44,778 nt of DNA from Candidatus Taylorbacteria bacterium RIFCSPLOWO2_01_FULL_45_34b (GTDB taxonomy: Bacteria > Patescibacteriota > Minisyncoccia > Phycocordibacterales > DSPV01). The stretch covers positions 1 to 44,778 of the forward strand of contig MHRY01000048.1 in the NCBI GenBank assembly GCA_001822675.1, given 5' to 3'. The position numbers and the translations under genes are program-made. How positions within the stretch are numbered: position 1 is the first letter of the stretch; every line of letters starts with the position of its first letter. The notes below the pieces were generated by a model. It was not told the origin of the DNA. It was given only the letters and a program-made list of their open reading frames with translations, and searched no databases. Below, piece after piece: positions 1,219 through 2,055 of this stretch.

Positions 1219-1260
1219 ACTTTTAGCAAATACCGGCGATAGCAAGTAAATGCTAAAAGT
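1219..1260 (+). repeat. Conserved-loop hairpin, copy 1 (ACTTTTAGCA-22 nt-TGCTAAAAGT), abutting the -35 box of the downstream RNA gene
   Basis: 1223..1257 matches 11395..11429 at 31 of 35 positions (TTAGCAAATACCrGyGATAGCAAGyawATGCTAAA). Confidence 0.6.
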
Positions 1261-1294
1261 TGACTGGACATAAACTTCATGATAGTTTCAAATC

Positions 1295-2055
1295 GGAGAT
1301 AAATGATGGTTTTGGGAGAGATTGAAGATGAAATGAACATTGGCTTCTACCCAAAACCATCAGCCCAATCCTGGGGCTTCTCGAAGGATGGGACACAAAC
1401 AAAATTTTTACTCGCAAGAGGAAGTGGCGGGGGAAGTACGTTCTAAATTGAATTCATATCTTACCCGCCACTCTTTTTGTGTGAGAGAAGTGGAAGATAC
1501 ATATGTCGAGGTTCCTAACTCACACTTCCCCCTTTCGGCTTCGGAAGCCGAAAGGGGGACTCTTTTTCGGTCGAAGACCGAGCTGCGCGGGAGAGAACCG
1601 TGTTGAATTGACTAAGCAGGTTACCCGCACAGTCCTTTTGACGGCAGAGGTGAAGAAGTGCCGAACTTACATGAATATCTTTTTTATCACCTCGCCACCA
1701 ACATTTTCTTATCCGGGTAAAGATTCTTTTCCCCACTATAAGCTTCTGCAGCTTCGGAAGCTCTCTTGCTCTCTTCATTACCTCACCCGTCGTTCTTTCA
1801 AATCCGTGGAGGTCAGACCTCCACAAAAGACCTCCACAAAAATTTTGAGTCAGCCTCGACTGACTCGAAAGGGTATGGTGAAGAAGGATATTACTCTTGA
1901 TAGCCGCAATTACCATACCCTCTTCTTCAGAAACCGAAACAGCTTTTTGTTTCTGAAGAGGAATTTGGTGGGGGAAAATATGCACTCTTATGAAGTTCTT
2001 GTTAACCCACCTTGCCCCGCTCTCGATAAAATCGGAGTGGGGCTTTTTCTTTTCC
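1295..2055 (+). ncRNA. Unclassified large structured RNA, paralog 1 of 3 (about 760 nt)
   Basis: Promoter TTGACT (1260..1265)-17-TAGTTT (1283..1288). Terminator CCCCGCTC..GAGTGGGG plus a T-run (about 2015..2050). The sequence contains many perfect hairpins with GCAA or UUCG loops. Long blocks are shared with 6722..7176 and 11528..12087, with compensatory changes. The ORFs in the track are overlapping, occur on both strands and run through the hairpins. Confidence 0.7.

Follow-up and report, generated by a model that had tools for sequence, protein, structure and literature searches.

Paralogous hairpin-array loci, candidate structured non-coding RNAs, in a Candidatus Taylorbacteria genome

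We examined a 44,778-nt stretch of the genome of Candidatus Taylorbacteria bacterium RIFCSPLOWO2_01_FULL_45_34b (contig MHRY01000048.1, positions 1 to 44,778; hereafter the window), and within it a non-coding stretch at 1260-2053 on the plus strand that runs from a promoter-like site to a terminator and is packed with near-perfect hairpins. This locus, copy 1, stands upstream of a co-oriented DUF2914-VTT-glycosyltransferase operon. It belongs to a family of at least six loci that together hold 30 instances of one hairpin module and occupy 3.4 kb of 22 kb (~15%). A first-pass annotation, made by a model from the sequence, had counted three copies in 11 kb.

The window carries rpoB/C, rpoD, dnaG, hisS, bipA and uvrD-like genes, which identify it as part of a cellular genome. 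No tRNA or rRNA genes were detected in it, and no GC-skew switch marks a replication origin or terminus. Its sequence is also carried by contig MHRE01000022.1 (GCA_001820855.1), from a metagenome-assembled genome of Rifle-aquifer Parcubacteria/Paceibacteria, and is repeated in many ENA, JGI and Logan assemblies at 99.5–100% identity. We read ~63 kb of the source genome in all, the window and the same contig to its left (contigs L152/L155). Genomes of the candidate phyla radiation (CPR)/Patescibacteria are ~1 Mb in size and tightly packed.

Copy 1 and its repeated module

Copy 1 consists of a series of local hairpins, of which half are one repeated ~48-nt module that we term the H-module; it is not the single ornate fold with one large architecture that had been proposed. 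Every helix listed for it in the first-pass annotation is present at its place, and the structure goes beyond chance: the minimum free energy (MFE) of 1290-2055 is −296.6 kcal/mol, a z-score of −12.3 against dinucleotide shuffles, with z-scores of −9.8 and −9.7 for copies 2 and 3. Comparison of the paralogues supports no long-range helix, RNAalifold supporting local helices only. The features of copy 1 are as follows; bit scores refer to a covariance model, R1, described below.

1260-1288, plus strand: promoter-like site TTGACT, 17-nt spacer, TAGTTT (predicted, read from the sequence)
1308-1358, plus strand: H-module c1_H1, GGTTTTGGG/CCCAAAACC, a 9-bp helix with a 33-nt loop AGA...UGA...CUA; 31.5 bits
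1362-1378, plus strand: plain hairpin AGCCC/GGGCT
1396-1420, plus strand: A/U-rich single-stranded junction CAAACAAAAUUUUUA, then GNRA hairpin CUC-GCAA-GAG (CTC-GCAA-GAG in the DNA, at 1411-1420)
1423-1472, plus strand: H-module c1_H2, AGTGGCGGG/CCCGCCACT; 37 bits
1479-1525, plus strand: H-module c1_H3, GTGTGAG/CTCACAC; 32.6 bits
1528-1569, plus strand: internal terminator-like hairpin T1, 15 bp (helix 1528-1558), then CUCUUUUUCG; from a terminator scan
1584-1631, plus strand: H-module c1_Hx1; 29.6 bits; equivalent in copy 5 at L155 8854-8898
1646-1694, plus strand: H-module c1_Hx2; 34.6 bits; equivalent in copy 5
1792-1824, plus strand: junction GUUCUUUCAAAUCC, then hairpin hpA, GUGGAGGUC-A-GACCUCCAC (helix GTGGAGGTC/GACCTCCAC at 1806-1824)
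1847-1866, plus strand: hairpin hpB, GAGUCAGC-CUCG-(A)CUGACUC (helix GAGTCAG/CTGACTC)
1871-1920, plus strand: H-module c1_H4, GGGTATGG/CCATACCC; 18.3 bits, with 29.2 bits for its copy 3 equivalent
1919-1966, plus strand: hairpin hpC (TTCAGAAAC/GTTTCTGAA, within 1919-1961), then the invariant block UUUCUGRARAGGAAUUU
1967-2011, plus strand: H-module c1_H5; 33.6 bits
2014-2053, plus strand: intrinsic terminator GCCCCGCUC...GAGUGGGGC with a U-run (predicted from sequence and fold)

The modules are separated by plain, perfectly paired hairpins, GNRA or UUCG loops capping some of them, and by short A/U-rich linkers such as CAAACAAAAUUUUU and GUUCUUUCAAAUC. Among the paralogues, helices are either kept through double changes or swapped for a different hairpin at the same place. 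One helix pair of c1_H2 is C-G in copy 1, U-A in copies 3 and 5, and C.A in copy 2, and the position of the AGCCC/GGGCT hairpin holds a longer G+C hairpin in copies 2 and 5. A 43-nt block spanning the CAAACAAAAUUUUUA junction and the GNRA hairpin is 95% identical between copies 1 and 2 (blastn); related junctions are also found in copies 3, 4 and 5. Each long copy is split midway by a T1-type terminator-like hairpin with a U-run, and the position equivalent to T1 in copies 2 (6945-6970), 3 and 5 is taken by a hairpin of different sequence followed by a T-run. The GUUCUUUCAAAUCC junction and hpA are kept in copies 1, 2, 3 and 5, with G-C to A-U double changes in copies 2 and 3, and the hpB loop of copy 3 is UUCG. 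The 17-mer after hpC is found in all three window copies, with 0.06 matches expected by chance. Terminators equivalent to that of copy 1 are present in copies 2 and 3. What had been taken for a ~220-nt insertion specific to copy 1 (1560-1780) has a homologous counterpart in copy 5 and a partial one in copy 3; copy 2 lacks it.

The H-module is a helix of 6–9 bp and variable sequence, often ending GGG/CCC, that carries a loop of 32–34 nt. The loop opens with NGA (mostly AGA) in its first three positions, carries UGA near positions 18–20 and closes with UYA (mostly UUA). The 16 H-modules of the window align nearly gap-free, and R1 was built from them. R1 finds all 16 on the sense strand at 18–40 bits, antisense scores being far lower, and elsewhere in the window (32 kb) it has no match. 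To the left, on the same contig, it finds modules from outside its training set, at 20–25.8 bits, in three more intergenic regions, and none in the 8.5 kb further left of this cluster. As controls, the best R1 match in 685 kb of unrelated DNA scored 19.3 bits, and nothing scored above 18.5 bits in ~390 kb made up of loci from relatives and unrelated loci that pattern scans had hit.

Of the cells of the closing helix 93.9% are paired, and there are double changes in 6 of 6 pairs and 14 further pair types; none of 500 shuffles equals this pairing, and slid controls collapse. Over all 30 modules the loop measures 32–34 nt in 23, starts with NGA in 27 and has UGA at positions 16–21 in 25. TGA is found in 29 of the 30 loops against 15.2 expected, and GAAG in 16 against 4.9. 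GGA is not enriched (10 of 30 loops, 12.0 expected), and neither is AGGA (2 of 30, 4.9 expected). The first half of the loops is 40% A. The loops fold no better than shuffles do (mean z = −0.16), MFE folds of individual modules differ from each other, and RNAalifold found no pairs inside the loop when given the module alignment, in which MAFFT had misaligned the stems. K-turn or C/D-box, hammerhead (CUGAUGA) and tetraloop-receptor readings, judged by eye, each suit only a few modules.

Evidence that this is a feature of the RNA, read on the sense strand, is modest but consistent. In each of the three window copies the sense strand has a fold 13–17 kcal/mol more stable than that of the antisense strand, and more G-U pairs. 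GNRA and UNCG tetraloops number 12 in sense and 2 in antisense. The H-module motif as modelled by R1 is strand-specific. The module stems vary, and the conserved positions are the unpaired ones of the loop; copies of a mobile palindrome show the opposite pattern.

A variant of H2 was seen in contig L010, which is otherwise 99.55% identical. At L010 440-471 (window 1439-1471) the H2 loop and 3' arm are replaced by an unrelated 32-nt segment, GCGGAGGCGGCACCGGTAGCATAAACATAAAC, not found anywhere else in the sequences retrieved; copy 1 is otherwise identical in L010. UGA, UUA and the 3' arm are all lost, so that the module is broken. The segment is either real strain variation or a local mis-assembly, and the latter is likely, because an N gap and a peculiar in-frame insertion of 24 nt in bipA are found on the same scaffold.

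Just ahead of copy 1 lies a ~38-nt hairpin, UUUAGCAAAUACCRGYGAUAGCAAG.AUGCUAAA, that occurs twice at 89% identity, at window 1222-1260 and 11394-11429 (plus strand). Both instances directly follow a plus-strand stop codon, that of an 84-aa open reading frame (ORF) and that of bipA. A similar sequence, AAAUAGCAAAUUACCGCC...UUUGCUAAAUA, lies downstream of bipA in relative L144, at about 3460-3500.

Six loci and their surroundings

The other members of the family range with copy 1 from 350 to 790 nt, with 3–7 modules each. Two lie in the window and three to its left.

6686-7174, plus strand: copy 2, promoter to terminator; H-modules at 6730-6777, 6841-6891, 6897-6941 and 7092-7136
11528-12122, minus strand: copy 3; H-modules at 12007-12057, 11955-12001, 11777-11828, 11658-11705 and 11567-11609
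L155 about 10861-11475, left of the window: copy 4, between fmt and a 573-aa ORFan
L155 8556-9090, left of the window: copy 5, with the same 5' architecture as copies 1 and 2
left of the window, about 345 nt: copy 6, ending in a terminator

Copies 2 and 3 had been reported as paralogues of copy 1, and MAFFT and blastn bear out the homology of both, with several helices kept through double changes. Their extents are here refined to those listed, and copy 3 turns out to be a minus-strand element: on the plus strand its hairpins come in reverse order, and its terminator and promoter point the other way. The loci differ by gain and loss of modules; the whole arrays are otherwise colinear paralogues.

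A −35/−10 pair with a 17-nt spacer is predicted at the same relative 5' place in all six loci. The pairs are TTGACT/AATTAT in copy 2, TTGACC/TAAGTT in copy 3, TTGCAA/TAGAGT in copy 4, TTGACG/CATTAT in copy 5 and TTGCTA/TAGAGT in copy 6. The promoter and strong terminator assigned to copy 1 in the first-pass annotation are both in the sequence. The −10 element, TAGTTT, fits the consensus at only three of six positions, and for this reason the copy 1 promoter is absent from the consensus-scan list. Four of the six loci end in a hairpin and U-run.

The surroundings of the loci differ. Downstream of copies 2, 3 and 6 the next gene is convergent, and none of the three precedes a co-oriented one. 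The copy 1 terminator ends 195 nt before the next start codon, that of the DUF2914 operon. Copy 5 precedes a small ORF and def-fmt, and copy 4 leads straight into the 573-aa ORFan, which has no Pfam or PADLOC match. At L155 10852-13720, copy 4, the ORFan and copy 6 stand between fmt and the PPIase gene, where the order in relative L157 is def-fmt-325 aa-PPIase-S30AE; copies 4 and 6 thus flank a lineage-specific gene. No defence or toxin match was found by Pfam or PADLOC among the neighbouring proteins.

Other repeated structures were noted in the same genome. At window 40300-40700 (approximate, plus strand) lie three or four tandem ~110-nt units with a TTGCAT-type promoter-like site. Each has a 5' hairpin (e.g. 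GUGGAGGUUUGACCAACUCCAC) and then a G+C hairpin with a U-run. They resemble a second, unrelated family of tandem small RNA genes, with no Rfam match at the gathering threshold. A repeated palindrome, CACTTAATTTCAGCGACCGCGTAAA..TTAAGTG, is present at two loci (window 14720-14775 and L155 9100-9150), in each directly followed by a TTGAC promoter-like site and then a small hydrophobic ORF. Copy 2 is followed by a related palindrome built on a TTAAGCGGTCGCTTAA core (window 7224-7265).

Distribution beyond the source population

The loci match no known RNA class, as had been proposed. In a Rfam 15 scan of the whole window at the gathering threshold the sole match was a group I intron at 92-375 on the minus strand, and E-value scans of all six loci against Rfam 15 returned only sub-threshold hairpin and terminator look-alikes, none of them credible.

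The group I intron is complete (RF00028, 84.4 bits), with its host gene and exon context falling outside the window. A 181-aa ORF at 225-770 (minus strand) runs into its 5' part and has weak HNH/homing-endonuclease matches (Pfam E = 0.003; PADLOC HEase E = 0.0016).

Relatives were searched with nhmmer and R1 in ~250 kb around bipA and fmt (78–84% BipA identity; one relative with 62% Fmt identity), and nothing was found. The syntenic gaps there are short, at 85-aa ORF/DUF2914, sigma/bipA and bipA/RRM in L015/L016 and at fmt/PPIase in L157. We also scanned GTDB species genomes, JGI metagenomes and IMG/VR with three patterns taken from blocks conserved in all three window copies. Two scans of the GTDB set, from which the source genome itself had apparently been left out, gave 0 matches and 3 chance or lone-hairpin matches. 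The only true match in the JGI metagenomes was copy 3 of the same organism (L140, identical), beside 5 chance matches, and IMG/VR gave chance matches only. Collections of plasmids and phages yielded no match by blastn. No homologue was found in any other genome within reach. On these sequence comparisons the family appears to be young or fast-evolving and, as far as seen, restricted to one population.

Long structured intergenic regions of other kinds were seen in a related Parcubacteria contig, L013, at 17520-17930, 4300-4700 and 1560-1900. They include a ~400-nt domain closed by a 22-bp inverted repeat, a cluster of G+C-rich hairpins and a stretch resembling a housekeeping RNA. None matched the H-module model.

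Possible roles of the arrays

Our favoured reading, held tentatively, is that these are lineage-restricted, multi-copy, independently transcribed non-coding RNAs that serve one partner as a decoy or scaffold. The anatomy of the loci, their paralogy, their want of coding potential, the strand asymmetry and the confinement to one lineage are shown by the sequences, while transcription, the partner and the decoy or scaffold role are inferred. We are surer that the loci are a genuine family of structured, non-coding transcription units than of the proposed role toward a protein. Each locus would run from a sigma-70-like promoter to an intrinsic terminator as beads on a string, with G+C-rich hairpins alternating with 3–7 modules and A/U-rich linkers between. 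On its rigid stem each module would present two similar purine-rich half-sites, RGARR and UGARN, at a distance of 17 nt. Since the same pair recurs in every module, a single partner, most probably an RNA-binding protein, would find several equivalent sites on one transcript. By analogy, the RNAs might titrate or scaffold it as CsrB/RsmZ or CrcZ do, with a different motif. A multivalent binding platform would be the simplest reading of ~30 stem-displayed, constant-size, unstructured, purine-rich loops. The RRM protein encoded next to copy 3 is the obvious candidate partner, and a weak one.

The module is absent from Rfam, and bacterial non-coding RNAs built from repeated hairpin motifs are a known kind. 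CsrB/CsrC, RsmX/Y/Z and CrcZ are likewise independent promoter-to-terminator units with many hairpins repeating one short recognition motif, present as several diverged paralogues per genome and poorly conserved in sequence between lineages. Here, however, the unit is a ~48-nt hairpin with a 33-nt open loop marked AGA/UGA/UUA, and not a short GGA or CA-rich loop. The loci are longer (350–790 nt), six of them are clustered in 22 kb, and no CsrA, Hfq or Crc gene was found in the gene calls of the 63 kb examined. Because GGA is not enriched in the loops, we do not regard the loci as members of these families. With OLE, GOLLD, ROOL, HEARO and raiA the loci share a length of several hundred nucleotides, dense structure, unknown function and occurrence in uncultured or environmental bacteria. 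Each of those RNAs folds into a single conserved multi-domain architecture that includes long-range helices and is found in many species, whereas the loci here are strings of local hairpins of varying module content from one population, with no match to the covariance models. The type III antitoxin RNAs ToxI and CptI are also arrays of a structured unit (34–48 nt), ended by a terminator and upstream of genes. ToxI units, in contrast, are near-identical tandem direct repeats, of which Tandem Repeats Finder (TRF) found none at the loci, and no ToxN/AbiQ-like endoribonuclease was found beside any copy (Pfam, PADLOC). A CRISPR array was rejected, as direct-repeat arrays were not found, the units form inverted-repeat hairpins whose stems differ, and the gene calls include no cas genes.

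Several observations weigh against the decoy or scaffold reading. Transcription is predicted from consensus elements, and the −10 elements are weak. Copies 4 and 5 have no terminal terminator and continue into downstream genes. The RRM protein adjoins only one copy, and a relative has the bipA-RRM junction without such an RNA. Relatives are without these elements at four orthologous junctions, so that any function would be dispensable or very recent. With no homologue outside one population among the sequences searched, all covariation comes from paralogues. The closing-helix statistic is partly circular, because the modules were chosen as hairpins; G-U pairs are few in the module helices, and a perfect palindrome is equally a feature of DNA.

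The main rival, which we consider unlikely but well ahead of the others, is a DNA-level repeat mosaic (BIME/REP, BOX or MITE-like), in which palindromic units are duplicated and shuffled locally and fill intergenic space. Transcription would then be passive, with incidental roles as terminators, insulators or stabilisers of mRNA 3' ends. Absence from the relatives' orthologous junctions is what insertions or expansions would give. Module gain and loss between loci, a position at gene ends, the many perfect palindromes among the hairpins, clustering in 22 kb, the terminator-like character of several hairpins and the other palindromic repeats of this genome all fit as well. REP/BIME of enterobacteria and BOX of pneumococcus are similarly intergenic, modular and lineage-specific, lie at gene ends and vary in the number of palindromic units. 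Copies of REP, BOX or MITE elements, however, keep their stem sequence, whereas here stems differ and unpaired loop positions are conserved, the motif is strand-specific and the sense strand folds better. The arrays are also colinear paralogues, each with its own promoter-like site. They are clustered and not dispersed within the 63 kb; a further 40 kb, 32 kb in the window and 8.5 kb to its left, contains none. Gene calls over this ~63 kb include no transposase or RAYT gene, and the loci show no terminal inverted repeats or target-site duplications.

The loci might instead be cis-acting leaders or attenuators, long structured 5' untranslated regions in which the T1 hairpin controls read-through into a downstream operon. 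Mid-array T1 hairpins with U-runs in copies 1, 2, 3 and 5 would suit this, as would the co-oriented operon after copy 1 and the small ORF and def-fmt after copy 5. Copies 4 and 5 in particular could act as leaders, since they run into downstream genes with no terminal terminator, directly into the 573-aa ORF in the case of copy 4. Copies 2, 3 and 6, by contrast, face convergent genes and lack any target in cis. Cis-acting leaders therefore cannot make up the whole family, and a riboswitch or cis-regulatory leader class was rejected on the same grounds. The downstream genes are functionally unrelated, no Rfam riboswitch or leader matched, and the strong terminator of copy 1 precedes the next start codon. 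We think a leader role improbable, though it may hold for copies 1, 4 and 5 individually.

Two further readings give the loop itself a specific content. In one, which we regard as highly speculative, the H-module would be an RNA display element of a new kind, a rigid stem presenting a single-stranded 32–34-nt cassette framed by invariant AGA, UGA and UUA, and a dedicated protein would read the six loci as arrays of cassettes. The cassettes would be programmable units (guide-like or self-assembly addresses) exchangeable between strains, as the L010 variant might hint. In the other, a shade less credible still, the stem would present its fixed 32–33-nt loop as an exchangeable antisense or guide sequence against mRNAs or invading nucleic acids. 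The constant loop length (32–34 nt), the mostly variable loop sequence and the swapped H2 loop and 3' arm of L010 point that way. Yet in the 63 kb the loops do not exceed shuffled controls in complementary targets, no match came from the collections of plasmids and phages, and equivalent loops of different copies share sequence. No effector gene is nearby, and the L010 change destroys its module and is probably an assembly artefact.

That the region encodes a protein or small peptides is scarcely credible: Prodigal-type callers do give a 196-aa ORF at 1503-2093 (plus strand), and copy 1 stays open in frame 2 for 190 codons, but this ORF has no homologue except itself among 5.8 billion proteins, NCBI calls a 156-aa ORF at 1515-1985 on the opposite (minus) strand instead, and the paralogue alignments share no reading frame, being broken by many 1–2-nt indels. 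Mini-ORFs ending at the conserved UGA are no commoner in frame (7 of 25) than in control frames (3 and 7). Judged by these reading frames the region is non-coding. The ORFs called inside the loci (196 aa at 1503-2093, 156 aa at 1515-1985 on the minus strand, and others of 66, 90 and 120 aa) are very likely spurious.

In this compact genome, six paralogous hairpin-array loci, none of which matches a known RNA class, thus take up about 15% of a 22-kb stretch. Were they DNA-level repeats, they would be an unusual case, with loop motifs conserved instead of stem sequences. If they are transcribed, they would represent a lineage-specific regulatory or scaffolding RNA system in the CPR radiation, where to our knowledge almost nothing is known of riboregulation, and the 30 instances of one module would provide a handle for finding the partner protein.

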